Part shown: piece by piece, positions 3,860 through 20,000 of the stretch | How the letters are laid out: every line of letters starts with the position of its first letter | Numbering within the stretch: the stretch's first letter is position 1 | IMG/VR virus record: IMGVR_UViG_3300035034_004488 | Direction: 5' to 3' (one strand) | Length of the DNA: 20,000 bases | Source: an uncultured virus (IMG/VR IMGVR_UViG_3300035034_004488) | Taxonomy: Duplodnaviria; Heunggongvirae; Uroviricota; Caudoviricetes | Notes under the pieces: generated by a model | The model's input: only the letters and a program-made list of their open reading frames with translations | Database searches by the model: none | Told to the model about the DNA's origin: nothing | Program-made: the position numbers and the translations under genes

Positions 3860-3897
3860 TTCTCTCTCCCTCGTGTGGTGTGCTGTCTCTCACCACT

Positions 3898-3926: not shown

Positions 3927-3933
3927 AAGAATC

Positions 3934-4353: not shown

Positions 4354-4368
4354 TGCAGTAGCCTCGGC

Positions 4369-4653: not shown

Positions 4654-4718
4654 CTTGACCTCTCATGTCTGCACGTCTTGTAACGTCGGGCGCCTACTCA
4701 CAGGCACCTGACATAAAC

Positions 4719-4747
4719 ACTGTACCACAACGAACTACAACCGTAAA
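4719..4747 (-). promoter_or_regulatory. Repeated promoter, TTTACG-N17-TACAGT
   Basis: Minus strand TTTACG GTTGTAGTTCGTTGTGG TACAGT, immediately after the stop of gene 4750-5625. Confidence 0.75.
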
Positions 4748-4749
4748 AG

Positions 4750-5625: not shown

Positions 5626-5634
5626 TGGAGGTCC

Positions 5635-6096
5635 TCAGAGAAGGTCGTTTTGGAACGGGTCTCGCGACGGGCCGGTCACGGCCACGTGAGGGCTGGAGTC
5701 GGTTAGATCCGTGGAGATCCGTGGAGGGAGGGCATGTGTGGTCGGCACCACCTCAAGCTCTTCCAAGGTACCCAGGAAATCTCTTTTGGCGGCTGGCGCT
5801 GCCGTCTCCGGGAAGAACTCCGGGTCGAGAGTGCACCCCAACCACCGCTCCAGGAACCTCGCCGTCAGTATGACGTACTTTTTGCGGTCCAGGCATACGC
5901 TACGGCCTTCCGGAATGCGGATGCGCACGATGCCTTGCTGAGCCATCATGGCAGTCACGACCCCGCTCACGATGATGGAACGTCCCGGCACACGGGCCCA
6001 AATCGTGTGCCCCAACGACAGGGTGGGGTCAGTGAGGTCGAGTTGGATTGGTCGGGACGGGAGGTCTTTGAGGTACGGCGTCAAGTCGAGAGGCAT
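5635..6096 (-). CDS. Hypothetical protein (153 aa)
   Basis: ATG preceded by GGAG; downstream of promoter-like 6125-6154. Confidence 0.7.
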   Translation of the reverse strand: MPLDLTPYLKDLPSRPIQLDLTDPTLSLGHTIWARVPGRSIIVSGVVTAMMAQQGIVRIRIPEGRSVCLDRKKYVILTARFLERWLGCTLDPEFFPETAAPAAKRDFLGTLEELEVVPTTHALPPRISTDLTDSSPHVAVTGPSRDPFQNDLL

Positions 6097-6124
6097 TGGA
6101 GGGCTCCATTCGGGTATAGCTTCG

Positions 6125-6154
6125 ACAGTACCACGACAAGCAGGTTGAAGTCAA
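6125..6154 (-). promoter_or_regulatory. Promoter variant, TTGACT-N18-TACTGT
   Basis: Minus strand TTGACT TCAACCTGCTTGTCGTGG TACTGT; the -35 overlaps the stop of the upstream gene. Confidence 0.55.
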
Positions 6155-6822
6155 GAGACCTCGACGCTACGAATACGTAGGAAGCAGTTTTCGTTGAGGG
6201 AAGCCACAATAGACTGAATGTAAGCGAGTGCCTTGAGGTAGGTGTTCCAGTTGGTGCGTGTGTAGTGCAGGTAGGTCACAGGGCTTCCATCGGACTCCAC
6301 CCCCATCATCACGGCGTGAACCTTCACGTCTTTGAAGTACGCGCCGAGGTCGGTCGTGCCCCGTGTCTCATTGCGCTTGAGCGGGCTTTTGTAGGAGTGC
6401 ACGGCCGTGTGGGAGTCGCTCACCATCGTGGACCCTACAGAAGAGATCCTCAAGACATCGCGGCCGCGCTTCGCGCCGATGTAGATGCAGAGCTGCTCGT
6501 GTATCTTGCCCAGCTCCTCGACCACAGCGCTCACGTCGACCTGATACCAGTCTTTGCCTTCCTCATACCCGAAGACCTCAGCCAGGGTTTGACCGACAGT
6601 CCTCTCAAGCAAGGCGTCGAGACCGTCGTGGTTGTAATCGCATGTCCAGCGGTTAGAAGAGACCCCACGGATCGGCACGCCTTCCCCTGAAACCTCCAGG
6701 GAGGTGAGGCCTGCCGGAGGGTCTTGAGCGAAGAACGAGTTCTTGGGCGAGGAGGGTGAGCTAGCTTCGATCTCGCAGGGGTTGGCTCCGCTGGAGATGA
6801 ACGGTTGAAATATCATGCCCAT
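6151..6822 (-). CDS. Hypothetical protein (about 223 aa)
   Basis: Start re-called to ATG 6822 (AAGGA upstream) because the ORF-track start at 6897 lies inside the promoter. Confidence 0.7.
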   Translation of the reverse strand: MGMIFQPFISSGANPCEIEASSPSSPKNSFFAQDPPAGLTSLEVSGEGVPIRGVSSNRWTCDYNHDGLDALLERTVGQTLAEVFGYEEGKDWYQVDVSAVVEELGKIHEQLCIYIGAKRGRDVLRISSVGSTMVSDSHTAVHSYKSPLKRNETRGTTDLGAYFKDVKVHAVMMGVESDGSPVTYLHYTRTNWNTYLKALAYIQSIVASLNENCFLRIRSVEVS

Positions 6823-6887
6823 GGTCGATTTTCCTTGTGTTAGGATGCTTGAGGGGTTGACCCTTCCAGTCTGGGAGGGTTGCCCTT

Positions 6888-6916
6888 CATATACCACAAG
6901 CCTCAGGAGCCGTAGA
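6888..6916 (-). promoter_or_regulatory. Repeated promoter, TCTACG-N17-TATATG
   Basis: Minus strand TCTACG GCTCCTGAGGCTTGTGG TATATG. Confidence 0.75.
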
Positions 6917-6918
6917 AA

Positions 6919-7221
6919 ATGAATCAGGATCTAGTGGACCCGGTAAGCTACCACCTCCAGATCGTAGACAGTTTTTTCAATGCCCTCTGCACGCTGTATA
7001 TCCTCCGAGCCGGCATACTGAACCACGCACGCCCGGAGGTCACCTTGCAGAGCCTCGACGAGGTGATGGAACAGGCTCAGAAACAGCTCTCGCACGAGGC
7101 CTACCAACGGGTCGTCTACAAGATCGAACGCAACCTCACCCGCATGCTTCTGGGAGAGAGCAACCCCTTTTTCGAGGCGTTGGCGAACCAATACTTCGAG
7201 CGAAAGAACCTCCCGAACTAG
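6919..7221 (+). CDS. Hypothetical protein (100 aa)
   Basis: AGGAG upstream of ATG; converges on the 7218 gene with overlapping stops. Confidence 0.65.
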   Translation: MNQDLVDPVSYHLQIVDSFFNALCTLYILRAGILNHARPEVTLQSLDEVMEQAQKQLSHEAYQRVVYKIERNLTRMLLGESNPFFEALANQYFERKNLPN

Positions 7222-7793
7222 GACAAGGAGAGGTAGTTGCGCCACTCCCGGCCGCTCAAGTCGCACTGGAAGTTCAAGTAGACCCCATCGGCCACGGTAT
7301 GACACTTCAGGATCACGGCGTAGTTCTCTTCCACGTGCCCTTTGAGGCCTCGGATGAGACACAAAAGAGTCTGGTAGAAGTTCGTGAAGCTCCTGGAAGT
7401 GCCTCGTATCGGTTCAAACGCATCGGACATGTGCCGAGCACACACGATATTGAGATGCCCACGGAGCGAGTCCTGAGCACAGATCCATCCAGGAGGGAGC
7501 TGGTAGGACATGGCCGGACTGCCAAAGGCGTCTCGAACCGTCTGCTCTATCTCATGGATGCTCGACGACTCAAATTGACGTGTGAGACGTCCAGGAGGTT
7601 CAAAGACCGTGATCCGCCAGCCCTGCTCGGTCTGGGTCAAATGCCACCGGCCTCCCAACCCATCAAGGAGGCAGTCCCCGTATTAGTCGAACAACCGCTC
7701 ACCGTCTGTCCGCGTAGGGTCTTCCGGGAGCATACAGGAAAGCACGTCTTGAGCCTCAAGTTGACGCAAGGCCAGTGCGTTAATCAGCATCAT
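7218..7793 (-). pseudogene. 191-codon gene interrupted by one in-frame TAA (7683-7685)
   Basis: ATG 7793 overlaps the upstream stop (ATGA); reads MMLINALALRQ...ERLFD*YGDCLLDGLGGRWHLTQ... in frame with ORF 7218-7658. Confidence 0.7.
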
Positions 7794-8347
7794 AGGACCT
7801 CAAGTTGGTAAGACCACTCCACTTTCTGGCGCATCGCGTGCCCTTTGATCCGTGCGCGCTCCATAGCCGCCGCCGAACAGAGACTGAGGCTATGTTCCAG
7901 CTTGAGCAGCCAGGAGTCATAGGAGACTATGTTCATGGTGAAGTTCCCGACCTTATCCTCCCGGCAGGTGCAAAAGACACGGAGAGTGCCTGTCGGTAGG
8001 AGGACGCACTCATAGTCGAACATCACATAGACACTGTTGCGCTGCGTCACCGGCTGACACACGAAGCCCCACGTCATAGAAAGAATCAAACGGGGCGTCA
8101 ACGGACAGTCAAGCACGAGAGGGGGTGGCGTGTCATTGAATTCGCTCCATGGGCTGCTGCTGGAAGACGTGTAGCGCATCGGGTCTATTTCGGGAGGCAG
8201 GGGAGAGGCTAGGTTCCAGGAGGCAAAGTCGCAGGCCATGAAGAAAATGTGGTTGGGGAAGAGGTCGTAGTCCCGGACTATCTTCTGGATGCCTGGAGGA
8301 AGCCGAGAAATCTGATCGCCAACACGGAATTGAGAGATAATCATCAC
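7790..8347 (-). CDS. Hypothetical protein (185 aa)
   Basis: Tightly packed between neighbours (3-nt gap upstream, ATGA overlap downstream). Confidence 0.7.
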   Translation of the reverse strand: MMIISQFRVGDQISRLPPGIQKIVRDYDLFPNHIFFMACDFASWNLASPLPPEIDPMRYTSSSSSPWSEFNDTPPPLVLDCPLTPRLILSMTWGFVCQPVTQRNSVYVMFDYECVLLPTGTLRVFCTCREDKVGNFTMNIVSYDSWLLKLEHSLSLCSAAAMERARIKGHAMRQKVEWSYQLEVL

Positions 8348-8350
8348 ACC

Positions 8351-8938
8351 CTACCCAGCCAAGTCATGTGCGCGGAACATCCGGTCTATTTCAATAGGAA
8401 GGTACTTCGCGGAGGAGCTGTTACCCGCGTGCACCCTCCCCGACAGGTCCTTGACATGCGGTATGAAGCAATCCGTATTCACGCGGTACTGGAGAGCAAA
8501 GGCAACGCCCCAGAGGCTACACTTCAGCACTCCTCTCTTTTGGTCCAACCCCACCCACTGGTAGGTGGAGCCCGGCCTCTTACGTCTCGCGTGTGGGGAA
8601 GACTTCGAGTCAAAAGCCCATGCAAGTTGACCCGATGCCTCGGCCATTGCAGGTCCCAGGAAGTTACGCTGCCAGTGCAGTTGGACGGCCTCAAACATGT
8701 CCGTGGTGTTAAAGTTGAACGTTTGGTCTGAATGACGCGTACTGACCAAACAGAGAGAGTCTTCCTTCTGGACCGCCCACTCGTAAGACCAGAAATGAGA
8801 CTCGGGATGCGCGCCCCAACGCATCTGCTGAGCCTTCGAGACTTTCATTAGGTAAAGGTGCTTCAAGAATGGAAGCTCCTCACGCCACGCGCCGATCTGG
8901 CGCAGCCACTCCCCCTCCTTGAAATGATTGATGAGCAT
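8351..8938 (-). CDS. Hypothetical protein (195 aa)
   Basis: Strong RBS AGGAGG before ATG. Confidence 0.8.
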   Translation of the reverse strand: MLINHFKEGEWLRQIGAWREELPFLKHLYLMKVSKAQQMRWGAHPESHFWSYEWAVQKEDSLCLVSTRHSDQTFNFNTTDMFEAVQLHWQRNFLGPAMAEASGQLAWAFDSKSSPHARRKRPGSTYQWVGLDQKRGVLKCSLWGVAFALQYRVNTDCFIPHVKDLSGRVHAGNSSSAKYLPIEIDRMFRAHDLAG

Positions 8939-8959
8939 CGAAACCTCCTGTAGAGCTTG

Positions 8960-8989
8960 AGCCTACCACAAGACCTCAGAAGAGAACAA
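8960..8989 (-). promoter_or_regulatory. Weak promoter variant, TTGTTC-N18-TAGGCT with CTTGTGG
   Basis: Conserved CTTGTGG-TA core between a terminator and an RBS; the -35 is poor. Confidence 0.45.
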
Positions 8990-9012
8990 GAGAATCCTTC
9001 CTGAGAGAGACC

Positions 9013-9049
9013 AAAGAAAACCCCTCTCCCTTCATCGAAGGGAGAGGGG
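9013..9049 (-). terminator. Rho-independent terminator after the Ro60/TROVE gene
   Basis: 13-bp stem CCCCTCTCCCTTC / GAAGGGAGAGGGG, 3-nt loop, followed by TTTTCTTT on the minus strand. Confidence 0.9.
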
Positions 9050-9072
9050 CCGAGGTCAACAGGAGGTCCGGC

Positions 9073-10713
9073 TTAGAATCCGGAGATGAACTGGTTGAAG
9101 AGCTGAGGAACCTGCGCATCACAGCCCACGATGTCGAGCATGCCAGGGTCCTGCGGGTCCGCGATGGTGGTCCGCGTCGAGGTGAAGGCGAGCACAGCCG
9201 AACGCGCCGGGATGCCCGTCTGCTTTCGGTAGTTCGCCAGCTCGACCGAGGGGTGTGCCCCGGAGTGGTACGTCTCGCTGTCCGTCATGACCGCGAAGGC
9301 GTCGAAACGCTTCCCGTTCGTGCGAGCCCAACGGAACGGAACCGAGCAGTCCGTGCGCGAGAAGGACAGGCGCGACATCACCTTGAGGACGTCATCGAGG
9401 CGCTGCTTGGGAGAGATGTTCAAAGGCTGGAAGCCCTCCGAGAACGCCATGGCCTCCCAGTTCTCCTCCGTACGCATGATGCACATGGCCATCGCGGCAG
9501 AAGCCTCGTAGTTGGTGAGCATTTCCAGACCGTTGACGGGCTGACCCATCGAGCCCGAGACATCGAGCGCCAAGCAGATGCGCTTGCCCGTCGGTGTCAC
9601 GTTCTCAAACGCCGCGTAGAAGGCATCATCAAGCGCGTCGACGATCTTGGGCGTCACGTCCCAGGTGTTCGATCCCCGGAAGCCGCGACCCTGGCTGTAG
9701 GTCTTGAGCGCGGCGAGGACGTTGATGGGGTGGATGCGTGCCCGGCGAAGAGCCTCCGAATCCGTGATGCGAGACACGACGAACTTGGTGTTGTCGGACA
9801 TGTTGTCCAGCATCCCCAGCTTCGACATCTTCCCCAGGTTGCGGATCATCGCACCCAGCGGCATCTTTTCCAGAAGGGCCTCCCACACCTCGGTCGAGTT
9901 GAGCAGCTCCGTGGGGATGCACTCACGCGGCAAATTGTACGTCTGGATGAGGTCAACCACCTCCGACGCATTCGTGGCCCGCTTGGCCGTCTCGAAGGCC
10001 CAGACGCGACGGAGCACCTCGTCCTCGTGAGGCTTGGGGCCCACGTCCTCCCAGCCCTTGACCGCCCAGTGGAACAACGCGTTGCGCGTGTCCGTGTCCG
10101 GAGCGATGCGCGCGCGCCGGAGCACGTCACGATGTGACCAGCCACCACGCTGCTGGTACTTGATGAGCTGGTAGGCGAGGTCCGCCTCCGACTTGCCAAG
10201 GTACCACTTCTGGAAGGCACCCTTGGTCACCCGGTTCCAGCCGCCAAAGCCCTTGAGGTACTGCGCGAAGGTGAACAGATGCGTCCCCGTTCGGCAGACC
10301 TTGGGCACGGCCTCGCTCGCGGCGCGACGGACCTTGACGGCCTCCGTGTCACGCCCGTCCGAGTACCCCTTGCCCTTGTGCTGAAGAGCCAGCACGAGCG
10401 TGAAGATCGCCGGATCGTTCTTGAGAGCGCGGCCCGACGTCGAGACCTCGACGGCCATGTCCACCACACGCTGGCCGTTGAGCTTGAGACACTCCCCAAC
10501 GCAGCTAATGTTGTCCATCGTGAGGTCGCGCTGAGAGGCGTAGTAGGTGCCACCCTCAGAGCCCAGAATGAGGAACCGCTGGAGCTGGCCCCAGGGGCCC
10601 GTATCGAAGCCGACACCTCCCGCAGCGTTGGGGAGCATCTCAGCCTCGCGGCCCGGAAGGGCCTCGGTCTGAGGCGTGTTCTGAGGCGTCTTGATGTAGC
10701 TACCGTAATCCAC
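9073..10713 (-). CDS. rsr: Ro60/Rsr-like TROVE domain RNA-binding protein with C-terminal vWA domain (about 546 aa)
   Basis: NAAGG..F, LQRFLILGSEGGTYY, VCRTGTHLF, YQLIKYQQRGGWSHRDVLR, MPLGAMIRNLGKM, ARIHP, ALDVSGSM, TDCS, TDSET, IADPQDPGMLDIVG. Start re-called to GTG 10713 behind GGAG. Confidence 0.95.
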   Translation of the reverse strand: MDYGSYIKTPQNTPQTEALPGREAEMLPNAAGGVGFDTGPWGQLQRFLILGSEGGTYYASQRDLTMDNISCVGECLKLNGQRVVDMAVEVSTSGRALKNDPAIFTLVLALQHKGKGYSDGRDTEAVKVRRAASEAVPKVCRTGTHLFTFAQYLKGFGGWNRVTKGAFQKWYLGKSEADLAYQLIKYQQRGGWSHRDVLRRARIAPDTDTRNALFHWAVKGWEDVGPKPHEDEVLRRVWAFETAKRATNASEVVDLIQTYNLPRECIPTELLNSTEVWEALLEKMPLGAMIRNLGKMSKLGMLDNMSDNTKFVVSRITDSEALRRARIHPINVLAALKTYSQGRGFRGSNTWDVTPKIVDALDDAFYAAFENVTPTGKRICLALDVSGSMGQPVNGLEMLTNYEASAAMAMCIMRTEENWEAMAFSEGFQPLNISPKQRLDDVLKVMSRLSFSRTDCSVPFRWARTNGKRFDAFAVMTDSETYHSGAHPSVELANYRKQTGIPARSAVLAFTSTRTTIADPQDPGMLDIVGCDAQVPQLFNQFISGF

Positions 10714-10797
10714 TTTGGTACTCCGAAGGAAGTTGTCCCGAGCCTCACAGCTCATACTGCGTACGAGCAAAGAATGAGAGGCTCATGATGTCCGAGG

Positions 10798-10826
10798 ACC
10801 CTGCCACAAGAGACCCAAGGGGTCAA
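10798..10826 (-). promoter_or_regulatory. Promoter variant for the Ro60 gene, TTGACC-N17-CAGGGT with CTTGTGG
   Basis: Near-consensus -35 and the shared CTTGTGG, but a poor -10. Confidence 0.5.
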
Positions 10827-10832
10827 GTTATT

Positions 10833-11414
10833 TCAGAAGTAGAGTCCGGACAGCTCCCCGGCGAGTACCTTGGCGCGCAGCTCCTCAACGCGAGCACGAA
10901 CCCTGGACTCGAAGGGCCACATCCAAAAGTACCGGCTGGTGGTGAACTGCTTGACGATCCAGTCCACGGTCGCGTCGGTGATCTGGCCAGACTCCTCGAA
11001 GGCCACGATCATGTTCGCCGTGTACCCTCGCATCTCCCAGTGCGCGCGCATGGTCCAAATCGCAGGAAAGAAGAGCGCATAGCTCACGGGAAACCAGATC
11101 GGGTGCGCGAGGCGATCACGCATATGCACATACTCATGCCTCAAGACGGAGTACGTCGAGTACACGGTGAGGTCTTGAGGCATGCGAGGGAACGCCATAT
11201 GGTTCGGAGTCACGACCGTGTAGCGCTCTCTCCAACGCTTGGCAAAGGCGGGCATGATCACGTCGAGGATCGCCATCCCAACCCAGATAAACCACAGGCT
11301 CAGGCTCTTCTTGTGCCAACCCTCTTCGTCTCTCCCGATGATCTTCATCTCGGGGTTGGCCCTACCCATCGCCTCCAACAACTCCTGTACCTTCTCCGTG
11401 TCGACGTTTGACAT
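10833..11414 (-). CDS. Putative membrane-associated HEXXH zinc metalloprotease-like protein (about 193 aa)
   Basis: LRHEYVH plus downstream RAHWEMRGY glutamate; hydrophobic segments; start re-called to ATG 11414 behind AAGGAGG. Confidence 0.65.
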   Translation of the reverse strand: MSNVDTEKVQELLEAMGRANPEMKIIGRDEEGWHKKSLSLWFIWVGMAILDVIMPAFAKRWRERYTVVTPNHMAFPRMPQDLTVYSTYSVLRHEYVHMRDRLAHPIWFPVSYALFFPAIWTMRAHWEMRGYTANMIVAFEESGQITDATVDWIVKQFTTSRYFWMWPFESRVRARVEELRAKVLAGELSGLYF

Positions 11415-11437
11415 CTCTAGCCTCCTTGTGGTAAGCC
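11408..11437 (+). promoter_or_regulatory. Promoter variant, TTGACA-N18-TAAGCC with CTTGTGG
   Basis: Perfect -35; overlaps the start codon and RBS of the divergent gene; upstream of plus-strand run 11484-13335. Confidence 0.6.
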
Positions 11438-11483
11438 TGTTTGAATCCATAACTCCACGGTACAAGACGATTAAGGTGGCTCG

Positions 11484-11894
11484 ATGCTCATCAACTATTT
11501 CCAGCGCTCCCGCTTCAAGAAGGTGACCCACCACCGCTACCTGGACCTCGCATCGGAGGTCATCCTGGTGAGGCCTTCCAAGACAGAGAGGGGGACCTCC
11601 GAGACGACCCTGGTTCGCGGCTACATCTCAGGAGGTGACCCGTGGCCCAAGCCCAAGAAGGTCGAGATAGAGCTGGAGACCGGCGACCACGGGATCTGGA
11701 CCTACGAGACCCTGACCGGAAAACTGTCTGGCCGGAGCTTACCCGTACGCCGTCACGAAGACTCTCGGAAAATGACCTTCGACCTCAAGGATCGAAACTC
11801 CGTGCTCCTCGTGTGGCAGGGGTCGGGCGAGGCGGGGCCCATCACTGAGAGTCTGGTGCACGTCCTGTGCGACATTCTGGAGATGGCACTCTAA
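11484..11894 (+). CDS. Hypothetical protein (136 aa)
   Basis: ATG behind AAGGTGG; first gene of the plus-strand run. Confidence 0.75.
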   Translation: MLINYFQRSRFKKVTHHRYLDLASEVILVRPSKTERGTSETTLVRGYISGGDPWPKPKKVEIELETGDHGIWTYETLTGKLSGRSLPVRRHEDSRKMTFDLKDRNSVLLVWQGSGEAGPITESLVHVLCDILEMAL

Positions 11895-11901
11895 ACCTTT
11901 T

Positions 11902-12351
11902 ATGAGACTGGTCACCAGACCGGAAGTGCGTACCCAAGCTCTTATGCCGCAGGGTGCCCTCATGCCACTGGTCGTTCCCAAGTCGCGCTACCGGGATGGT
12001 GATCTGATCGTCTGCCTACGCACGCAGACCATGTACGGGTACTACCCCGAACGTCTGCTGGCGACCTTGTGTCTGGCCATCTACCGTACGGGGAGACACT
12101 ACACGGAGCTGGAGACGTGGTACGGGTTGAACCTGTCCCTGGCAGGAAGGTGCGAGGCGAGGGACCTCCATGACGTCGAGGACTGGGCCGTAGAGGACCC
12201 CGACGTACACATCTACGGTGCAGTCTATGGGCGGATGAATCTTGACGATCACGTTGAAATGACTCAGTATCTGCGGCACGTACTCGACATCATCTGGTCA
12301 GACCTCCTGTCTGACTGGTACTGGCGAGCCACTCAAACACCCTACACATAA
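11902..12351 (+). CDS. Hypothetical protein (up to 149 aa)
   Basis: Fills the operon gap; exact start uncertain. Confidence 0.7.
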   Translation: MRLVTRPEVRTQALMPQGALMPLVVPKSRYRDGDLIVCLRTQTMYGYYPERLLATLCLAIYRTGRHYTELETWYGLNLSLAGRCEARDLHDVEDWAVEDPDVHIYGAVYGRMNLDDHVEMTQYLRHVLDIIWSDLLSDWYWRATQTPYT

Positions 12352-12360
12352 GGGCACCCC

Positions 12361-12861
12361 ATGAAGAAAGCACTCGTGATCCTGAGCCTACTGCTGTTGA
12401 GCTTCGGCTGCGACAAGACTGACACGCCGGACGCTGGAGACGCAAGCACAGACGTCTCGACGGACGGCTCCAAGGAGGTCTCCACGGATGCCGGCCCCAC
12501 CTGCGAAGAGCATTTGGCCAAGGTCGAGAGCGACCTGACCGATGCTCAGGACACGCTCAACGGTTGCATGACGAGCATGCCCAAGCGCGAGACCTTCGAG
12601 ATCACGAAGGACGAGCAGGAGCTGCCGTGCGGCCACGACCTGTCCATCTCCATCCACAAGCTGGACTCGAAGGCGCTCTACCTCGGCTACCGTACGAGCC
12701 CCAAGGAGCGAGAGTTCTCGGGTCGTATGGACATCCGGAAGCATGCGGACCGTCGCGCGCTCTACCTCGCGGAGTCTCAGACGCTGATCAACGTGATCTC
12801 GTGTGGCAAGGACAAGTGCAAGGTGAGCTGCGTCGGCCTGTCCGGCGTGGATGAGGACTGA
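12361..12861 (+). CDS. Predicted lipoprotein, Cys-rich
   Basis: Signal peptide MKKALVILSLLLLSFG-C with lipobox, then an acidic linker and six further Cys. Confidence 0.8.
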   Translation: MKKALVILSLLLLSFGCDKTDTPDAGDASTDVSTDGSKEVSTDAGPTCEEHLAKVESDLTDAQDTLNGCMTSMPKRETFEITKDEQELPCGHDLSISIHKLDSKALYLGYRTSPKEREFSGRMDIRKHADRRALYLAESQTLINVISCGKDKCKVSCVGLSGVDED

Positions 12862-12867
12862 ACGCTC

Positions 12868-13335
12868 GTGTTGGACTTGGTAGCACAGGAGACGCGGATC
12901 ACGGAGACGCTTGATATCTGGCGTGGACGTGATCCGGAGCCCGAAGACTTCACACAGGAGGTCTGGGTGCGTCTGGTAGAGGTCCGACACCTCTACGACT
13001 CCGGCCGAGGGACCGTAGAGGCCTTCGTCATGCGAGTCGCGCGCAGCGTCTGGGTCGGGCGTCTTCGGTATGACCAAGCGCTCAAGCGTACCCCGGTCGT
13101 CGACGCTACCGAGCCCCTGTATTCTCCTGAGCCCAAGCCAGCTCCAAAGCCGTTCAAGGCGTACCTCCTGGAGCACACCGATTTCGAGGACGTTGAGCCC
13201 CGCCGAGTCTACAAGCTCTTGAGCATGGGCTACACGCGACGAGAGATATGCGACTGCCTTGACCTGACCCTGTATCAGGTCAATCAGGCCAAGGCACACC
13301 TTCGCACTCTCTTTGAGAGATACGAAGGCCCTTGA
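12868..13335 (+). CDS. ECF-type (sigma70 family) RNA polymerase sigma factor-like protein
   Basis: Region 2-like EDFTQEVWVRL....YDSGRG..EAFVMRVARS....RLR and region 4-like HTH RRVYKLLSMGYTRREICDCLDLTLYQV. Confidence 0.75.
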   Translation: MLDLVAQETRITETLDIWRGRDPEPEDFTQEVWVRLVEVRHLYDSGRGTVEAFVMRVARSVWVGRLRYDQALKRTPVVDATEPLYSPEPKPAPKPFKAYLLEHTDFEDVEPRRVYKLLSMGYTRREICDCLDLTLYQVNQAKAHLRTLFERYEGP

Positions 13336-13339
13336 GGTT

Positions 13340-13627
13340 TCAGTTCGACACGAAGGGCTTCAGGGCAGCGAGTACATGCTTGCACGGCCCTTTATGGTAC
13401 TTGTGGGCGGGGCATGAGCAGGACCGGACGCGCTTCTGGGCGTCCACCTTGACCTTGTAGGGCGCGTCTCCGTTCCCTTCGACTTCCGCCCTCAGCACGC
13501 CCTCGGCATCGAGGGTCAGATTCTTGACCTTGCCCAGCGACACGTAACGCTCGGCGCGTTGTGCGACGTCGCTCGGGGCCTTATCCCATAGGGCTTTGAA
13601 GGTCTCAGTGGTCTCAGGGTAAGTCAT
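13340..13627 (-). CDS. SWIM zinc-finger protein (95 aa)
   Basis: A.V.G....Y.V...CSCP......PCKH.LA; ATG 13627 behind GAGGAG. Confidence 0.88.
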   Translation of the reverse strand: MTYPETTETFKALWDKAPSDVAQRAERYVSLGKVKNLTLDAEGVLRAEVEGNGDAPYKVKVDAQKRVRSCSCPAHKYHKGPCKHVLAALKPFVSN

Positions 13628-13666
13628 GTCCGTCTCCTCTCGTGGTGTGATCGCGTTGACACACAC

Positions 13667-13695
13667 TATATACCACAAGAGAGGTGGGTCGTAAA
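13667..13695 (-). promoter_or_regulatory. Repeated promoter, TTTACG-N17-TATATA
   Basis: Minus strand TGAGATAGTTTTTACG ACCCACCTCTCTTGTGG TATATA. Confidence 0.8.
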
Positions 13696-13706
13696 AACTA
13701 TCTCAA

Positions 13707-14107
13707 AAAATACCCCCGCTTATACGAGGAAGGGCAAGCTCGGAATGCTAAGCACCCCGGCCGACGAAGAAAGGGGACATCCCCGCGTGTACGGGGAAGG
13801 GAGCGCGATGAGGTCGTATGACCCGACCGGAATGGGGACATCCCCGCGTGTACGGGGAAGGGAGGTTTTCGTCGTGCTTTCGGACGCTGCCAGCGGGGAC
13901 ATCCCCGCGTGTGCGGGGAGGGGGTGGTGCATCTCAGCGCGCAAGGTCACCATGCGCGGGACATCCCCGCGTGTACGGGGAAGGGTGAAGGTGGCTCACC
14001 GACTGCGGTGAAGGAGGGGGGACATCCCCGCGTGTACGGGGAAGGGATCTCAAGATCACGACCGGCATTGCCCACGCTCGGGACATCCCCGCCTGTACGG
14101 GGAAGGG
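13707..14107 (-). CRISPR. Type I-E-like CRISPR mini-array: 6 repeats, 5 regular spacers, plus a degenerate terminal repeat
   Basis: 28-nt repeat GGGACATCCCCGCGTGTACGGGGAAGGG starting at 13774, 13835, 13896, 13958, 14019, 14080 (period 61-62). Reverse complement CCCTTCCCCGTACACGCGGGGATGTCCC matches the I-E pattern TTCCCCG...CGGGGAT. A 20/28 degenerate copy lies at 13707-13734. Confidence 0.95.
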
Positions 14108-14177
14108 TCTGCGACAAGAAGTCACATCTAACACAGGTCCGTGCGGGCATCCTTCAGGACGAGCCATAACTATCACA

Positions 14178-14597
14178 CTACTTCTTGTCTTGTAAAGCAG
14201 AATCTGAGTTAAGACCTCTCAGGAGCTTTTCGAGCTGTTCGGTGATGGTACTGGAGGGCCCGTCGAGGCGGTGGACGACGCGGAGGCGCCTCTTGTAGTA
14301 GCTCGACCACATGTAGAGATGCTGCGCAGGATCACGCTCGTAATCGTCCAGGACATGCAAGAGGCCCACATTCTTGAACCAGGAGAGCATCGTACACACC
14401 GTTCTGTGGTGGTACTTGAAGCGCACCGGGTCCAGATCCTCCAGCTTCTCGACGAGATCGTAGACGTCCGCATACCGGAAGGGGGTGTCCCGGATCAACT
14501 CGTCCCTCATCCAAAAGAGCATCTGATTGACGTTGCAAAAGCTCCTGGGGGCGTGCACGAGCGCGTCTTCGAGGGGCTGATGCGTGGGGAACGACAT
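14178..14597 (-). CDS. Hypothetical protein, possible winged-helix DNA-binding fold (139 aa)
   Basis: ATG behind AAAGGA; pattern FRYADVYDLV...RTVCTMLSWFKNVGLL is wHTH-like (inference). Confidence 0.7.
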   Translation of the reverse strand: MSFPTHQPLEDALVHAPRSFCNVNQMLFWMRDELIRDTPFRYADVYDLVEKLEDLDPVRFKYHHRTVCTMLSWFKNVGLLHVLDDYERDPAQHLYMWSSYYKRRLRVVHRLDGPSSTITEQLEKLLRGLNSDSALQDKK

Positions 14598-14703
14598 GTA
14601 CTAATCCTTTTGTATTCGAGACGAGATGCACCCCTACGGGAGTGCTGGAAGCGTGAAGGTCAATACCAGAACGTACAAACACCTTACGCGATGTGGAGCA
14701 CTC

Positions 14704-15381
14704 ATGGGCATGCACGATTGGCACTCAAAATACGGCGGACGGGAGTGGAGGATCACACATCAGGGCATCGAAGCCCGTGATGTCGGTCTCTTCCGCACAC
14801 GTGGCACGCCTTCGACCGTCATGACCCTCTGGGACGATTTCGGGGAGCATCTCCTCTACGCGAGCCACGAGCTGGGCGTCCCCGTGGACTGCATCATCGC
14901 CATGATCCCGATCGAGGCGAGGCGCCGGGGTGGTCACTATGACCCCCAATCACGTCGAGAAGAGCCGGGGTACATCTCCGACACGCAGACGCCTCACAGG
15001 GTCTCTCCAGGCCTCATGCAGACGCTCATCTCCACCGCCAAGGACATGGCTCGGCGCTACAATTTGCTCGACCCTGGCTTGATCACGTCAGAGCTGTTGT
15101 ACGATCCGTTCTATTCGATCCTGCTCGGCACGGCTTTCCTGGCGCGTCAGATCGAACGGTACGGGCCAGACCCCATCCTCCTGTGCGCCGCGTACAACGC
15201 GGGCTCGGTCCGAAAGCACGACGAAAACCTCTGGCATCTTCGCGTCCACGGACCGACCCGGATGGACAGATATGCCAGCTTCTTCAACGACTTCCTGTTC
15301 GCGATCGACCACGGACTGATCAAGCTCGACAGCCGGATCATCTTGACGCGTGACTTCCTCCCCCTTGACCTCAATTCCTGA
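14704..15381 (+). CDS. SLT-domain lytic transglycosylase
   Basis: LGVP...IIAMIPIE (catalytic Glu), SPGLMQ, LYDP..SI..G..FL, AAYNAG; start re-called to ATG 14704 behind GGAG. Confidence 0.88.
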   Translation: MGMHDWHSKYGGREWRITHQGIEARDVGLFRTRGTPSTVMTLWDDFGEHLLYASHELGVPVDCIIAMIPIEARRRGGHYDPQSRREEPGYISDTQTPHRVSPGLMQTLISTAKDMARRYNLLDPGLITSELLYDPFYSILLGTAFLARQIERYGPDPILLCAAYNAGSVRKHDENLWHLRVHGPTRMDRYASFFNDFLFAIDHGLIKLDSRIILTRDFLPLDLNS

Positions 15382-15396
15382 ACCGGAGTACCCCTC

Positions 15397-16401
15397 ATGA
15401 GCCTGCGACTGGCCGCCTACCTTCATCAAGCACAGCTTCACCTCTACCGTCAGGCGACCACGCGCGATTTCCGCGCAGCGGTCGCGATGGCGCGTATCTT
15501 CCACGACACCAACCCGAAGTCTCGCTTCGCGTCTCGCCGGGTGAAGAAGGCGTACTCGGACCGAGACCTTACGGTGGCGATCAACCAGATGATCGCGCGT
15601 GAGGGAGTCAACAAGAGGCTCACGGAGGAGGGTCACGATCCGATCCCCAGCGACATCAACTGGGGCCGGGTCATTCTGCTCCACGCGAAGAAGTACGCAC
15701 GCGTCGCCAAGGTCGACATCAACGACTTCGTGGGTGAGCTGTTTGCAGACATGCTCGCGGGACAGCGTGGACGTTCGGTCCGTGAGACGGGCTCCTGGCG
15801 CAACAACATCATCGGTGAGATTGAGGAGTGGGGCCGCCAGGACTACAACAAGGCCCGGATGGTCAAGACGTTGGCTCAGTTCACCAAGAACAAGGCCTAC
15901 AACATGATGCGCACCGAGCAGGTGCGGCTGAACCCGGACACGGGCTTCGACTCGGGAGATGCTCCTGAGGGCGGCGCGGCTGGCGGTGGTCGGCTCTTCG
16001 AGTCCCTGTTCACCCTGGACGGGATCACGAAGTCGATGATGGGCAACTGGATGTCGCTGTCTCGACGTAACCCGGTCCTCACCGACCTCGTGAACAAGGT
16101 CGAGGAGAAGCTCTCCAAGCGCGACGACGAGTACGCGTTCATTTTCAACGCCTACATGCAGGACCCGTCGGCGCCGCTCTCCGAGCTGCTCGACACGGTG
16201 ATCATGGCCAAAGACCCGGAGACGGGAGCGCGCGGCCGCATGCCCCTGTGGCATGCTCTCGGATTCCCCGAGAACGACTCTTCAGGTGCCCGCAACTCCA
16301 ACAAGGCCAACTTGAGCTACCGCGTCAAGAAGATGCGCGCCATCCTCAACAACATGTTCCCCGAGGTCGAGTCCTTCCTTCGCGACCTCAGCATCCGCTG
16401 A
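15397..16401 (+). CDS. Hypothetical protein (334 aa), possibly a divergent sigma-like factor
   Basis: ATG behind GGAG; strong GC3 codon bias; followed by a terminator. Function is inference only. Confidence 0.85.
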   Translation: MSLRLAAYLHQAQLHLYRQATTRDFRAAVAMARIFHDTNPKSRFASRRVKKAYSDRDLTVAINQMIAREGVNKRLTEEGHDPIPSDINWGRVILLHAKKYARVAKVDINDFVGELFADMLAGQRGRSVRETGSWRNNIIGEIEEWGRQDYNKARMVKTLAQFTKNKAYNMMRTEQVRLNPDTGFDSGDAPEGGAAGGGRLFESLFTLDGITKSMMGNWMSLSRRNPVLTDLVNKVEEKLSKRDDEYAFIFNAYMQDPSAPLSELLDTVIMAKDPETGARGRMPLWHALGFPENDSSGARNSNKANLSYRVKKMRAILNNMFPEVESFLRDLSIR

Positions 16402-16427
16402 TCACACGCGACATACCCTCCAGGACG

Positions 16428-16461
16428 ACCCCCGGACTTTGCCGTCCGGGGGTTTTCTTTT
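16428..16461 (+). terminator. Rho-independent terminator fused to the next promoter
   Basis: Stem ACCCCCGGAC / GTCCGGGGGT, then TTTCTTTT running into TTTACG. Confidence 0.88.
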
Positions 16462-16487
16462 ACGGCTCAAGTCTCCTGTGGTATACA
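16459..16487 (+). promoter_or_regulatory. Repeated promoter, TTTACG-N17-TATACA
   Basis: TTTACG GCTCAAGTCTCCTGTGG TATACA upstream of the AAA ATPase. Confidence 0.8.
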
Positions 16488-16517
16488 AGACCCGTACATC
16501 CAAGAGCAGGAGTAAAG

Positions 16518-17738
16518 ATGCTGACAGTGACGACGCCCGGAGACTTCCTCATCGAATTCAATAATGGGCTCGCCGTGGACGCGGAGACGGGGGACAAGGC
16601 GCATAGCCTTCTGAGCTTTCTCAAGGAGCGGGGACTTACGGTCGAAGAGTACCTTAACGAGAATGGGAGAGACGCCAGCCTCTTCAGCCCGAAGGTCTGG
16701 AAGGCCTTCTACGAGCTGGAGCGGCTTGACGATGTGACTCTCGTGGACGAGGAGCACCTCTACGGCATGCGCCTGAACCTCCAGGCGAAAGATGTGAGCG
16801 TGCTCAAGATGCCGGCGAGGGCGACCCCTGGTTACAAGTTTCCGGAGGAGGGAGAGGCAGGCAAGGCGGCCAAGCGCGCGGTGAGGCATCTGATCTGCGG
16901 CCGTAAGCTCTTCATCCACGGAGAGGCAGGTACGGGCAAGTCGTCACTGGTGCGAGAGTGGGCGTACCGGACGCAGCGTGAGTTCCTACACGTGGAGATG
17001 CGAGAGGACCTCGACCCCGCGAGCTTCCTCGGACAGCGAGAGGTGGTCATTGACCCGGAGACCAAGCAGAACGTTACCAAGTTCGTGCCGGGCAAGCTCC
17101 TGGAGGCCCTCAAGGGGAACGTGGGGAGTGATGGCGAGCGGCGAGGGGTCCTCATCCTTGTGGACGACATTGACCGGGCCCCGGCCTCCTACCACGAGGT
17201 CTTTCGCCACATGCTCGACGACAACGCGCGCAAGATCTATGTCCAGGAGCTGGGCCACGACATCGACATTCACCCGGACACGACGTTCGCGGTGACCGCC
17301 AACTCCCGTGGGCGCGGTGACGACGGCGGCGGTTACGCGTCCGTCATGCAAATGGACGCGAGCATTCTGGACCGTCTCAACGCCTTCGTGGAGATGCCCA
17401 GCATGGACACCACCGAGGAGTGCGACATCCTCATGAAGAAGTTCCCCCAGCTCCTTGAGATGAGCCCCAAGACGCAACACAACCCGTTCTACAAGGTGAT
17501 GAAGGTCGCAGAAGACCTACGTAAGATGGCCCGCACGGAGCACTTCCCCATCAACTTCTCACACCGACGCTGTGAGGACTGGCTGCGTAGCATCGAAGAC
17601 ATGACCGTACTCAACGGCTCCTACGACGTCGCATTCCTCGCGGAGACGGCCTCGGATTGGCTCGACCGCTTCACCGCCTTCGAGCAGGATCGCTTGCTTA
17701 AGCGCGCCGCGAGCATCCACGTCAACCTCGCCCTCTGA
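16518..17738 (+). CDS. CobS/MoxR/CbbQ-like AAA+ ATPase (406 aa)
   Basis: Walker A GEAGTGKS, Walker B ILVDDID, sensor TANS, Arg finger ASILDRL; start re-called to ATG 16518 behind AGGAG. Confidence 0.9.
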   Translation: MLTVTTPGDFLIEFNNGLAVDAETGDKAHSLLSFLKERGLTVEEYLNENGRDASLFSPKVWKAFYELERLDDVTLVDEEHLYGMRLNLQAKDVSVLKMPARATPGYKFPEEGEAGKAAKRAVRHLICGRKLFIHGEAGTGKSSLVREWAYRTQREFLHVEMREDLDPASFLGQREVVIDPETKQNVTKFVPGKLLEALKGNVGSDGERRGVLILVDDIDRAPASYHEVFRHMLDDNARKIYVQELGHDIDIHPDTTFAVTANSRGRGDDGGGYASVMQMDASILDRLNAFVEMPSMDTTEECDILMKKFPQLLEMSPKTQHNPFYKVMKVAEDLRKMARTEHFPINFSHRRCEDWLRSIEDMTVLNGSYDVAFLAETASDWLDRFTAFEQDRLLKRAASIHVNLAL

Positions 17739-17761
17739 GACGGCTCGAAGGCCGCCCGGAG

Positions 17762-17800
17762 AACCCACCTTCAATTAACCTCGAAGGTGGGTTTCTTTTT
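17762..17800 (+). terminator. Rho-independent terminator fused to the next promoter
   Basis: Stem AACCCACCTTC / GAAGGTGGGTT, then TCTTTTT running into TTTACG. Confidence 0.85.
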
Positions 17801-17826
17801 ACGCCTTTCGCTCCTTGTGGTATAGG
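17798..17826 (+). promoter_or_regulatory. Repeated promoter, TTTACG-N17-TATAGG
   Basis: TTTACG CCTTTCGCTCCTTGTGG TATAGG upstream of the vWA gene. Confidence 0.8.
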
Positions 17827-17852
17827 GGGGATGTATATTCAAGGAGGACAGG

Positions 17853-20000
17853 ATGAGCAGACAGTACGACGGCCGCGACATCGCGATGGGACACGCGCCC
17901 TTGATGCGGATGTTGCTGGATGAGGCTGACCACGACACGGTGATTGAGAGCCGTGGTGACCAGTTCTACAATGCGAGCGACTTCCCTTTGCTCACGTTGG
18001 TGATGCGCATGCTGGCGTTGAGGACCTCCTGGACGTGCCCGGACATGGCGGAGCTGAAGCAGGGCTGGAACCGCCATCGCAGTGAGGTCAGCTTGGACAA
18101 GAAGATCGTAATTGGCGTAACGCCGATGGAGGTGTCCTCGGAGTACCTCGCCATCCTGGACGGAGGGCTCATTCATGAGGTCTTGCATAGCCTCTACACG
18201 GTGAGAGGGCACTGGTTGGACCTGAAGCGGCTACACAAGCTCCTGGAGGCGAACTGGGACGCCTCCGTGCAATACAGAAGCAAAATGCCGCTCTTCAAGA
18301 GCCTGTGGAACATCTACGAAGACGCCATGATAGAGCGTCACGGGCTCAAGCGCTGGCCGGCGACCCGTGAGAAGCTGGAGCGGACGCATATGAGCGTCTG
18401 GGAGCTTGAGGAGCCGGGCCGTCTCCAGGGGGGCTTCTCGCTGACCGACCACGTGTGCTGCTACCTGCGAGATGTCATACAGGAGTGGTCAGACCGAGCC
18501 CCCCTGGAGACCTACGACCCGAAAGCGCGCCACATCGTCGACGATCTGCTGTCCAAGGAGGTTCGGGATTCCGACGCAGCCATGGATTCGTACGACACGC
18601 TGGCGCTGACCTTGCGCACTTTGAGCATCCTCACGAACCTCCCGACAACCAAACCCGAGCCTGAGCCCGAGCCCAAGCCTGACCAGTCCTCACGCAAGAA
18701 GAAGAAGAATGAGGAGAGTGAGGAACCGTCAGACCCTGGCTTTGAGCTGCCGGGCGACGGCGGCGAGGGCGAGGAGTCGGGCGAGGAGTCGGACGAGGAG
18801 TCGGACGAGGGCGGCGAGGGCGAGGCCGGCGAGGGTGGGGAATCTGGAGAGGAAGGCGGCGAAGGCAATAGCTCCAAAATGGACGCAGGAGGCGAGGAAG
18901 AGTCTCAAGAGGGTGAGGAGTCGGGTGAGAACGCGGGCGAGAGTTCTGGGGCATCTGAGAGCCCTTCAGCGGACGATTCACGCCGGGACCCCGAAGAGGA
19001 GTCTCTGTTGAGCCAAAAGGACGTCGACGAGATGGCAAGCGCTACGAAGACTCGGGCGCTTGAGACCTCGGACGCGCTGGAGACCCACACGGTCAACGGA
19101 AGCGACCTCCGCAACGCACGCTGTCCTCGACCTCTGGAGCCTGGAAGGGATCTGCGCTTCGTAATCAAGCCCGACTCCCGGTACCGCAAGCTCCTGGATA
19201 AGAAGAAAGCCCAGCTTGAACCCTTCGTCACGACTCTCCGCAGCCAGCTCGCGCTTTTCCTCCGAGGAGAAGCCAAGGTCCGACGCCTGCGACATCTCCA
19301 GAAGGGTCGCAGGCTCTCCAACCGGAGCCTGAGCACTCTGGTCACGAGCCGGAATCCGAAACCCTTCGAGGATCGCGTCAACACCCAGGCCCGCACCACG
19401 GCCGTACAGGTCGTGCTTGACCTCTCCGGGTCCATGAAAAGCGACACGCCCACAAACCTCCTAATGATCTTCGGGATGCTCCTTGGCGATCTGGGGGTGC
19501 CCTGGAGCGCCATCGGCTTTCAGGGTACGCCCTACGAGTACCGAAACCCCGGAGGCTACCACGCGCCTGACCGCACAAGGTTCTCTAGCCACGTCACGCG
19601 CACCGAACCCGTCCAGTTCCCGTTGTTTCATGACTTCGAGGACTCCAACGGGCCCGACGACCTCACCCGCCTCCTCCAACACAGAGCAAGTGGCGGCACG
19701 CCCTTCATGGATGGTTTCTGGGAGGGGGTCCAGCGCATAAAAGCTCGGCCAGAGAAGAGGCGCCTTCTGGTGCTCATTACGGACGGGGACACCTCTCCAG
19801 GCTCCTTGACCAAGTTAGCGGCTCACAAGGTCCTCCGAGCCATGCACGAGGACATTCGTAAGGAAGGCGTCGAGGTCCTCGTGGTGGGCTACCAGCACAA
19901 CGTCAGATACCTCCCTCAGGAAGACGTGATTTCGGTGCGCGACCCCCACTCCTTCGCGGAGGCTTTCCAGAGCTGGCTCCTGGAGCGACTCAAGAAGTGA
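17853..20000 (+). CDS. CobT-like vWA domain protein with N-terminal HEXXH domain and acidic linker (715 aa)
   Basis: LIHEVLH...NIYED..IE, long E/G/S-rich linker, MIDAS motifs VVLDLSGSM, GGTP, LITDG; RBS AAGGAGG; stop TGA at 19998-20000. Confidence 0.88.
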   Translation: MSRQYDGRDIAMGHAPLMRMLLDEADHDTVIESRGDQFYNASDFPLLTLVMRMLALRTSWTCPDMAELKQGWNRHRSEVSLDKKIVIGVTPMEVSSEYLAILDGGLIHEVLHSLYTVRGHWLDLKRLHKLLEANWDASVQYRSKMPLFKSLWNIYEDAMIERHGLKRWPATREKLERTHMSVWELEEPGRLQGGFSLTDHVCCYLRDVIQEWSDRAPLETYDPKARHIVDDLLSKEVRDSDAAMDSYDTLALTLRTLSILTNLPTTKPEPEPEPKPDQSSRKKKKNEESEEPSDPGFELPGDGGEGEESGEESDEESDEGGEGEAGEGGESGEEGGEGNSSKMDAGGEEESQEGEESGENAGESSGASESPSADDSRRDPEEESLLSQKDVDEMASATKTRALETSDALETHTVNGSDLRNARCPRPLEPGRDLRFVIKPDSRYRKLLDKKKAQLEPFVTTLRSQLALFLRGEAKVRRLRHLQKGRRLSNRSLSTLVTSRNPKPFEDRVNTQARTTAVQVVLDLSGSMKSDTPTNLLMIFGMLLGDLGVPWSAIGFQGTPYEYRNPGGYHAPDRTRFSSHVTRTEPVQFPLFHDFEDSNGPDDLTRLLQHRASGGTPFMDGFWEGVQRIKARPEKRRLLVLITDGDTSPGSLTKLAAHKVLRAMHEDIRKEGVEVLVVGYQHNVRYLPQEDVISVRDPHSFAEAFQSWLLERLKK

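Follow-up and report, generated by a model that had tools for sequence, protein, structure and literature searches.

The stretch of DNA analyzed here, referred to as the window, is 20,000 nt in length and comes from an uncultured virus of the Caudoviricetes (IMG/VR record IMGVR_UViG_3300035034_004488). It carries a CRISPR array, which we call array B. We consider it probable, at roughly two chances in three, that array B is a distal guide cassette of a phage-encoded type I-E system that is used against sibling phages. On sequence evidence, the window sits on an element of ~366 kb, a 125-kb piece of which is catalogued as viral, and the I-E interference module of this element is placed ~235 kb from array B. 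Array B likewise appears to be one of at least six compact I-E arrays spread over the element. Coordinates of all features are collected in Table 1.

A 28-nt unit, GGGACATCCCCGCGTGTACGGGGAAGGG on the plus strand, occurs six times in the window at three or fewer mismatches (four copies exact, one with one mismatch, and one with two), with starts at 13774, 13835, 13896, 13958, 14019, and 14080. No copy was found in 200 dinucleotide-preserving shuffles. The distances from start to start are 61, 61, 62, 61, and 61 nt, giving a 61-nt period. With the variable adjoining base included, the repeats are 29 nt in length, and the five internal spacers are 32, 32, 33, 32, and 32 nt. A degenerate seventh copy is located at 13707–13734, set off by a 38-nt rather than a 32-nt spacer. 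In the crRNA (CRISPR RNA) sense, which is the minus strand, the unit reads CCCTTCCCCGTACACGCGGGGATGTCCC and forms a hairpin with a stem of 7 bp and a loop of 4 nt (−12.2 kcal/mol, z = −2.5). Repeat folds range from −12.2 to −14.3 kcal/mol, with a GC-rich stem (CCCCG.../...CGGGG), and after the hairpin comes an 8-nt handle whose last three bases are CC and one further base. All six repeats retain the hairpin; the two variants have a loop change or a change from G-U to G-C, neither of which disrupts it. The hairpin and handle appear to resemble the Escherichia coli I-E consensus. The repeat core is shared with I-E arrays on plasmids of Streptomyces, Paracoccus, and Acetobacter, and with arrays in many genomes. 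In the array region, Rfam gave no match at E up to 1. Judged by these features, array B is a genuine type I-E-type CRISPR array with its crRNA sense on the minus strand.

The window had been described in a preliminary way from its sequence alone, and much of that description stands. The six near-identical repeats and five 32- to 33-nt spacers were recovered by the pattern search. Minus-strand transcription from a short right-hand leader toward a degenerate repeat at the trailer end is what the sequence by itself supports, and the phage-like context is supported. Twenty-eight likely genes of the window, picked as open reading frames (ORFs) with guidance from third-position GC content (GC3), were scanned with Pfam, PHROGs, and PADLOC. 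Neither Pfam nor PADLOC found a cas gene among the 28 ORFs, as the preliminary description had stated for the surroundings of the array. Array B is an orphan within the 20-kb window itself.

Beyond the window, the repeat core matched one IMG/VR record at a stretch, L001, that is part of a ‘linear’ viral contig of 125,429 bp (G001), for which CheckV gives 27% completeness. Two other places that match the core are on a single metagenome contig, Ga0306866_1000002 (365,960 bp). The first of these places, L128, is 99.994% identical to positions 3838–20000 of the window, in reverse orientation. The second, L127, which contains a second array (array A), is located ~268 kb from the first and is 99.985% identical to L001 of G001 over all 20,144 bases. 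It is because of these two near-identities that we place the window on the ~366-kb element, part of which is catalogued as viral. A further contig, of 373,477 bp, is the longest one with exact copies of three of the four window proteins tested (encoded at 2183–2962, 4750–5625, and 15397–16401). The same contig is the longest for three of the four Cas proteins tested, also by exact sequence, and for three of six other G001 proteins (the 1,242-amino acid SLT-containing protein, the DNA polymerase, and a 1,452-amino acid protein). Exact look-ups that gave no match are most likely explained by start codons that differ from the gene calls. The simplest reading of the 373,477-bp contig is that it is one independent assembly containing both the window and the cas operon. 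By offset, the cas operon would lie at ~54.6–62.6 kb and array B at ~297.6–298.0 kb of Ga0306866_1000002. The element, ~366–373 kb in size, comes from lake-water metagenomes, and the sequence that we read covers ~41% of it (~149 kb: G001, the window, and 4.1 kb beyond the window).

A six-frame search of G001 found Cas7e, and the remaining cas genes were found in neighboring ORFs. Pfam, NCBIfam, and PADLOC agreed on subtype I-E for every Cas protein of the module. Among 5.8 billion proteins, the best non-self match to Cas7e is 33% identical over its length, and a word-based search with the Cas8e–Cas11e fusion retrieved only the fusion itself. Sequence comparison thereby places this I-E module as strongly diverged, far from known proteins. 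Cas1 (PF01867) and Cas2 (PF09707) had no match in six frames of G001 even at E up to 1, and neither was found in the ~41% of the element read (six frames of G001 and the 28 window ORFs).

A mismatch-tolerant repeat scan of G001, followed by dissection of each array, gave five I-E arrays. The arrays of the element have 6–12 repeats each, and the cas operon has arrays C and D immediately on either side. Differences among the repeats are found in the loop and at one stem pair, where the change is compensatory (CCCCGT...GCGGGG vs. CCCCAC...GTGGGG); all repeats of the element keep the hairpin and an ATGT handle. The array B repeat is of a type that also occurs in arrays A and D, and the variant fourth repeat of array B is of the type that occurs in array F. 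The 20 nt next to the first repeat of array B (14127–14108, crRNA sense) are ATGTGACTTCTTGTCGCAGA. This leader-repeat junction has the conserved form ATGTGACTTCTTG(T/G)C(G/A)CAGA in arrays A, B, D, E, and F (alignment A1; two variable columns), and the junction of array B is identical to that of array A. The repeat types and the 20-nt junction together indicate that array B belongs to the element's own I-E system. Arrays A, D, E, and F also have in common a longer leader and a TTGACA-N18-TACCAT motif upstream of the junction. In run X1, contigs that derive from other arrays align with the window as far as 14126, beyond which they continue into the other leader.

Several further observations concern the companion arrays. 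A solitary I-E repeat with a short leader-like junction is located at G001 57.6–57.83 kb (L131 ~15600–15830), upstream of cas3 and between arrays D and E, ~170 nt upstream of the full leader of array D; it could be a crRNA-like regulatory unit. Array A is composite: at the boundary between two repeat types, 21 nt of a repeat are duplicated (G001 ~23.13–23.19 kb). Array E is also composite, its two blocks of different repeat type being separated by 56 nt of GTTCCT-rich filler (60.13–60.22 kb). These composite structures suggest recombination between arrays. Just upstream of array A (9331–9386 of L127/L001) is a 56-nt stretch that is 80% identical to positions 1775–1830 of the window, a short dispersed repeat. 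Rfam had no family at gathering score in the window, L131, or L001.

Array B has candidate transcription signals of its own. Its candidate promoter, TTTACA-N16-GATAGT, had already been pointed out in the preliminary description; it is the only sigma-70-like match in 13200–14800, where 0.4 are expected by chance, and is a match to consensus only. It overlaps the last codons of ORF 14178–14597, for which Pfam, PHROGs, and PADLOC gave no family match and IMG/VR no relative. At the other end, the degenerate repeat with its T-run (13730–13703) is the only terminator-like site on the minus strand in 13200–14800. The fold of the degenerate repeat is weak (−8.7 kcal/mol, z = −1.2), and with the T-run the hairpin looks like an intrinsic terminator that would close the array transcript. 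Directly after array B, and before the SWIM zinc-finger gene, is a promoter-like motif on the minus strand, TTTACG-N17-TATATA (13695–13667). A promoter-like motif of the form GAGATAGTTTTTACG-N17-(G)GTATAT follows both array B (window 13659–13706) and array C (G001 ~48.0 kb). Contig depth in run X1 is several-fold above that of the flanks across the ~45-nt stretch 13659–13705, and many contigs branch at 13659 and 13705, which suggests a multi-copy phage promoter. Array B and the SLT site described below are identical wherever contigs of runs X1 and X2 cover them (X2 covers parts only).

We compared the 41 spacers of the six arrays with G001, the window, and the 4.1 kb beyond the window. Spacer 4 of array B (sp4) is the only one of these with a non-self match at fewer than eight mismatches; shuffled spacers gave 0–8 matches per replicate, counted at up to nine mismatches. 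The preliminary description had seen no spacer match inside the window, and this has to be amended: sp4 matches 15199–15230 on the plus strand at 28 of 32 positions, the last 23 of them contiguous. The site lies in the middle of the SLT-domain gene, 1.3 kb from array B. The four mismatches, at spacer positions 3, 7, 8, and 9, are all synonymous (GCT in sp4 vs. GCG in the gene for alanine, and AGC vs. TCG for serine), and sp4 and the gene encode the identical 11-amino acid peptide AGSVRKHDENL. This peptide starts within the family-invariant YNAG motif and runs into a variable stretch. It is absent from the seven closest full-length homologues aligned (39–51% identical), and homologues at 55% identity or less do not have it in common. 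Since the peptide is kept in sp4 and distant homologues are without it, sp4 appears to have come from a very close relative's copy of the SLT gene or from an earlier version of the element's own. Three of the four mismatches fall in the seed (positions 1–8), where E. coli I-E Cascade tolerates mismatches least. This pattern suggests that the target of sp4 is a close relative and that the phage's own SLT copy escapes. Competition between phages, as proposed in the preliminary description, is plausible because sp4 is a synonymous-site variant of the element's own SLT gene.

The other spacer searches, among them the search of viral and plasmid databases proposed in the preliminary description, gave no perfect target. 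Against isolated phages (E up to 1), array B had no spacer match; its repeats weakly matched one unannotated array, in Saccharomonospora phage PIS 136. That array is located between PIS_013 and PIS_014 (JX006077.1 ~15,680–15,890; L002 5875–6085) and has four repeats with a 61-nt period and the I-E-like repeat GGTTCATCCCCGCGTG[C/T]GCGGGGCGGAT. All 41 plasmid records matching array B (41/41) do so on repeats and not on spacers. The exact 22-nt parts of spacers 1–5 proximal to the protospacer-adjacent motif (PAM) had 0 matches each in IMG/VR, and the terminal 38-nt spacer had no match in the element sequence compared. No variant with a perfect sp4 protospacer was seen in runs X1 and X2 (X2 covers parts only). 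Arrays A, C, D+E, and F gave only repeat-level or low-complexity matches (GTTCCT runs) to phages. A 28-nt match of array C to a DNA polymerase gene occurs at two repeat positions and was read as chance. Streptomyces phages Eklok and AxeJC have at ~34.5–34.96 kb an unannotated stretch of ~90 nt that is 71% identical to a repeat-spacer-repeat of array D, and this may be another small I-E-like array in isolated actinophages.

Matching the repeat to bacterial arrays, which had been proposed as a route to the host, gave no such assignment. The 25-nt repeat core had 0 exact matches in the genomes of 185,579 species, a collection outside of which the host may lie. A degenerate pattern of the core occurs at at least 124 loci in these genomes, mostly in Actinomycetota among the matches listed. 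The closest full repeats among the matches listed agree at 24–25 of 28 positions and are scattered over unrelated phyla; they include an array in Streptomyces sedi, an array in a Deinococcus metagenome-assembled genome, and a single match in a metagenome-assembled genome of Chloroflexota.

From these features a mechanism may be proposed. Array B would be transcribed from its own candidate promoter (14196–14169), and the transcript would end at the degenerate-repeat hairpin with its U-run. Phage Cas6e would cut at the base of each repeat hairpin, yielding crRNAs of ~61 nt, each with a 5' handle AUGUCCC[C/G], a 32- to 33-nt guide, and a 21-nt 3' hairpin. The crRNAs would load phage Cascade, which would recruit phage Cas3 to destroy matching DNA, and the most likely targets would be closely related competing phages. 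A sibling phage with the sp4 version of the SLT gene would be cut and the carrier's own gene spared, because of four synonymous differences between the two, of which the seed contains three. A host I-E Cas1–Cas2, acting in trans, or genes in the other ~59% of the element probably supplied the spacers. The conserved leader-repeat junction may offer a natural docking site for acquisition in trans, by analogy with the type IV-A3 plasmid system: as reported in the accessible text of PMC11656645, a plasmid type IV-A3 (IV-A) system without Cas1 fills its array through host I-E Cas1–Cas2 in trans.

The preliminary description had proposed instead that array B is a Cas-less array that borrows a host I-E system. 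In this account array B is without a Cas partner, and host I-E Cascade processes and uses its crRNAs, possibly alongside phage Cascade. The account draws on the lack of a cas gene within the 20-kb window and on a repeat that belongs to a common I-E family of many bacteria. Virus-borne arrays that exploit host Cas proteins are moreover established, as the available portions of PMC6858448 and PMC11656645 describe, and acquisition without phage Cas1–Cas2 needs a compatible host I-E system anyway. We nevertheless consider it unlikely. The element itself has a complete I-E interference module, with flanking arrays that share the repeat and junction of array B. The search of 185,579 species found the 25-nt core in no genome and, among the matches listed, nothing closer than 24–25 of 28 positions, in unrelated phyla. 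Mini-arrays, as defined in the accessible text of PMC11656645, have one or two spacers and repeats identical to the host's, whereas array B has five or six spacers. The preliminary description had itself named a cas operon elsewhere on the same replicon as grounds for giving up the borrowing of host Cascade. The Cas3 and Cascade genes of the element indicate such an operon, at ~235 kb by the linkage given above, and the proposal of a Cas-less array is not upheld.

Array B might also be an inactive relic, a duplicated fragment of a cas-proximal array. The promoter and distal leader common to arrays A, D, E, and F are absent from it, its terminal repeat is degenerate and its last spacer unusual at 38 nt, and five of its six spacers have no target that we could find. 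However, all six repeats keep the hairpin, the spacers are unique, so that array B is not a copy of another array, and it has promoter-like and terminator-like signals of its own; it is also identical wherever contigs of two runs cover it. Decay of this kind seems quite improbable to us. Still more doubtful, and in our estimate very improbable, is that sp4 acts on the phage's own SLT gene, as a partial-match regulatory guide or as a tolerated self-target. The only detectable spacer match is indeed to the phage's own gene, 1.3 kb away, and crRNA-like regulators with partial matches are known (accessible text of 10.1101/2023.03.03.530964 and 10.1101/2024.10.29.618823). The site is in mid-gene and not at a promoter, though, and the mismatches are exactly synonymous, the pattern of an orthologue or of escape and not that of a designed partial match. 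Three of the four mismatches are also at seed positions 1–8, which E. coli Cascade tolerates least.

Several points weigh against array B as a distal cassette of a phage-encoded system. The linkage between array B and the cas genes is drawn from the 20-kb near-identity and the shared longest contig instead of a direct read, which makes it strong but indirect. The repeats of array C, which is closest to the Cascade genes, differ in their 5' end and loop, and the specificity of Cas6e for array B is therefore an assumption. Arrays A, D, E, and F have a TTGACA-N18-TACCAT motif and a distal leader that array B lacks. At the PAM position of the sp4 site, AAC is a single observation, and for none of the window's spacers did phages, plasmids, or IMG/VR yield a perfect protospacer. 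Most ORFs of the element match nothing; neither a capsid nor a portal or terminase was recognized in the ~149 kb examined, and a tRNA scan of this sequence found none. From the latter results it follows that the element may be a giant plasmid.

We nonetheless hold with good confidence that the element is a phage. IMG/VR classes G001 as viral, and Pfam recognizes a Baseplate_J domain in a 1,132-amino acid protein and an SLT domain in a 1,242-amino acid protein of this contig. G001 also has several ORFs of 1,270–1,450 amino acids, along with weak matches to tail and tail-fiber PHROGs; 11 of the 70 G001 ORFs scanned against PHROGs had any match. Pfam further recognizes DNA polymerase A, a DnaB-like helicase with an intein, a primase zinc finger, SNF2, PhoH, thioredoxin, and IF-1. 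The DnaB-like helicase is split by an intein with a LAGLIDADG homing-endonuclease domain (G001 87.7–90.7 kb; L135 5715–8657), and the IF-1 homologue is located at G001 ~77.2 kb (L132 15172–15456).

A fuller account can be offered only tentatively, and it is rather doubtful that all of it holds at once. The element would be a lake phage of at least 366 kb with a private, deeply diverged I-E system that has a subunit fusion and no adaptation genes, served by at least six dispersed guide cassettes that retain only the 20-nt leader-repeat junction in common. The different promoter and own terminator of array B would release its guides on a different schedule during infection. Lastly, sp4 would record a conflict with a sibling phage, the phage's own gene having been recoded synonymously in the seed, including the switch between the TCG and AGC serine codon families, so as to escape the guide that the phage itself carries.

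The system of the element fits the kind of CRISPR-Cas found in huge phages, which has been known since 2020. According to the accessible text of PMC7162821, the CRISPR-Cas systems of huge phages are almost all without Cas1, Cas2, and Cas4, their arrays have a median of six repeats, and some spacers target genes of other phages. The element is similar in being a very large phage-like element (contigs of 365,960 and 373,477 bp, >200 kb), in having compact arrays and interference genes with Cas1 and Cas2 not found in the parts read, and in having a spacer that points at a phage gene. It differs in that its system is type I-E, with fused Cas8e–Cas11e and reordered genes, and in having at least six dispersed arrays, one of them separated from the cas genes by ~235 kb. 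Type II, type V, and a variant of type I-C are named in the main text of PMC7162821 as far as accessible, and ‘I-E’ occurs 0 times there. In the literature searched, which did not extend to a 2022 survey of virus-encoded CRISPR-Cas and in which papers were accessible in part, no phage-encoded I-E system or natural Cse1–Cse2 fusion was described. The extent of the divergence and the number and scatter of the arrays likewise seem unusual, with no counterpart in that literature.

With canonical I-E systems, array B shares the 29-nt hairpin repeat, 32- to 33-nt spacers, and 61-nt period of the E. coli type, and Cas3, Cas7e, Cas6e, Cas5e, Cas8e, and Cas11e are all recognized by I-E-specific models. 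Unlike these systems, the element has no Cas1–Cas2 in the parts read, a single ORF for cas8e and cas11e, and the gene order cas3-cas7-cas6-cas5-cas8e/11e, and its 448-amino acid Cas7e is at most 33% identical over its length to known proteins. As with the mini-arrays described in the accessible parts of PMC6858448 and PMC11656645, which act between viruses, array B has a spacer that may come from a close relative, with the carrier's own copy mismatched. In contrast to these mini-arrays, the element has Cascade and Cas3, and no identical host repeat was found for array B in the genomes of 185,579 species. Set against the traits of a Cas-less mini-array, array B is accompanied by cas genes on its element, and its repeat core had no identical counterpart in those genomes; as for spacers that target related viruses, one of its six is a synonymous variant of an own gene. 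The type I-F system of Vibrio phage ICP1, in the account given by the accessible text of PMC11656645, is likewise a phage-encoded class 1 system with its own effector and nuclease, but it has an adaptation module, targets a host defense island, and has arrays beside its cas genes.

The remaining genes of the window include one for a Ro60/TROVE protein with a vWA domain. Its nearest relatives, at 58–66% identity, are on contigs of 112–177 kb, and Rfam found no Y-RNA-like family in the window. Megablast of the whole window against phages and plasmids gave no match, and two window proteins searched in IMG/VR had no relatives.

Table 1. Features of array B and the window, and of the cas operon and companion arrays on G001. 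Positions are those of the window unless G001 is named; aa, amino acids.
Feature	Position	Strand	Details
CRISPR array B	13773..14107	minus	six 29-nt repeats, five spacers
Array B repeats	14107-14079, 14046-14018, 13985-13957, 13923-13895, 13862-13834, 13801-13773	minus	
Array B spacers 1–3	sp1 14078-14047, sp2 14017-13986, sp3 13956-13924	minus	
Array B spacers 4 and 5	sp4 13894-13863, sp5 13833-13802	minus	
Spacer 4	13863..13894	minus	near-copy of part of own SLT-domain gene
Terminal 38-nt spacer	13735..13772	minus	between last good repeat and degenerate repeat
Protospacer-like site	15196..15230	plus	inside SLT-domain ORF 14626-15381; AAC at PAM position 15196-15198
Candidate promoter of array B	14169..14196	minus	-35 TTTACA 14196-14191, 16-nt spacer, TG-extended -10 GATAGT 14174-14169
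Leader	14108..14168	minus	20 nt adjoining first repeat conserved; upstream part unique to array B
Degenerate terminal repeat and T-run	13703..13734 (repeat 13734-13707)	minus	terminator-like; stem 13730-13713, tail TATTTTTTGA
SWIM zinc-finger gene downstream of array B	13340..13627 (ORF 13340-13678)	minus	probable start ATG 13627
Upstream ORF, 139 aa	14178..14597	minus	family unrecognized; stop codon 70 nt before first repeat
Metallophosphoesterase	2183-2962		Pfam/PHROGs
Ro60/TROVE protein (+ vWA)	9073-10770	minus	Pfam/PHROGs
Sigma-70 region-2 protein	12868-13335		Pfam/PHROGs
SLT-domain protein	14626-15381	plus	Pfam
MoxR-like AAA ATPase	16248-17738		Pfam/PHROGs
CobT-like vWA protein	17853 to beyond 20000		Pfam/PHROGs
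cas operon	G001 48.66-56.61 kb (L131 6659-14615)	minus	order cas3, cas7e, cas6e, cas5e, cas8e-cas11e fusion
Cas3			876 aa, HD + helicase; Cas3e model E = 3e-140
Cas7e			448 aa
Cas6e			domain at residues 96-312 of 319-aa ORF
Cas5e			248 aa
Cas8e-Cas11e fusion			single 735-aa ORF; Cse1 residues 4-500, Cse2 residues 579-729
Array A	G001 22.8-23.4 kb		12 repeats
Array C	G001 48.1-48.5 kb		8 repeats; directly downstream of fusion gene
Array D	G001 57.3-57.8 kb		6 repeats; upstream of cas3; preceded by solitary repeat with own leader
Array E	G001 59.8-60.3 kb		7 + 3 repeats
Array F	G001 113.0-113.4 kb		7 repeats

What this case adds is a complete but very divergent phage-borne I-E effector whose large and small subunits are fused. 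For scans that work on windows, the case of array B is a caution, as the cas genes of an array that looks like an ‘orphan’ in 20 kb may be 235 kb distant. The scattering of arrays over hundreds of kilobases with a shared short junction is relevant to how arrays come to be copied, or filled in trans, when no Cas1–Cas2 is resident. The pair formed by sp4 and the phage's own SLT gene, which differ only at synonymous positions, offers a testable case of a phage that would be immune to its own guide while excluding its siblings.

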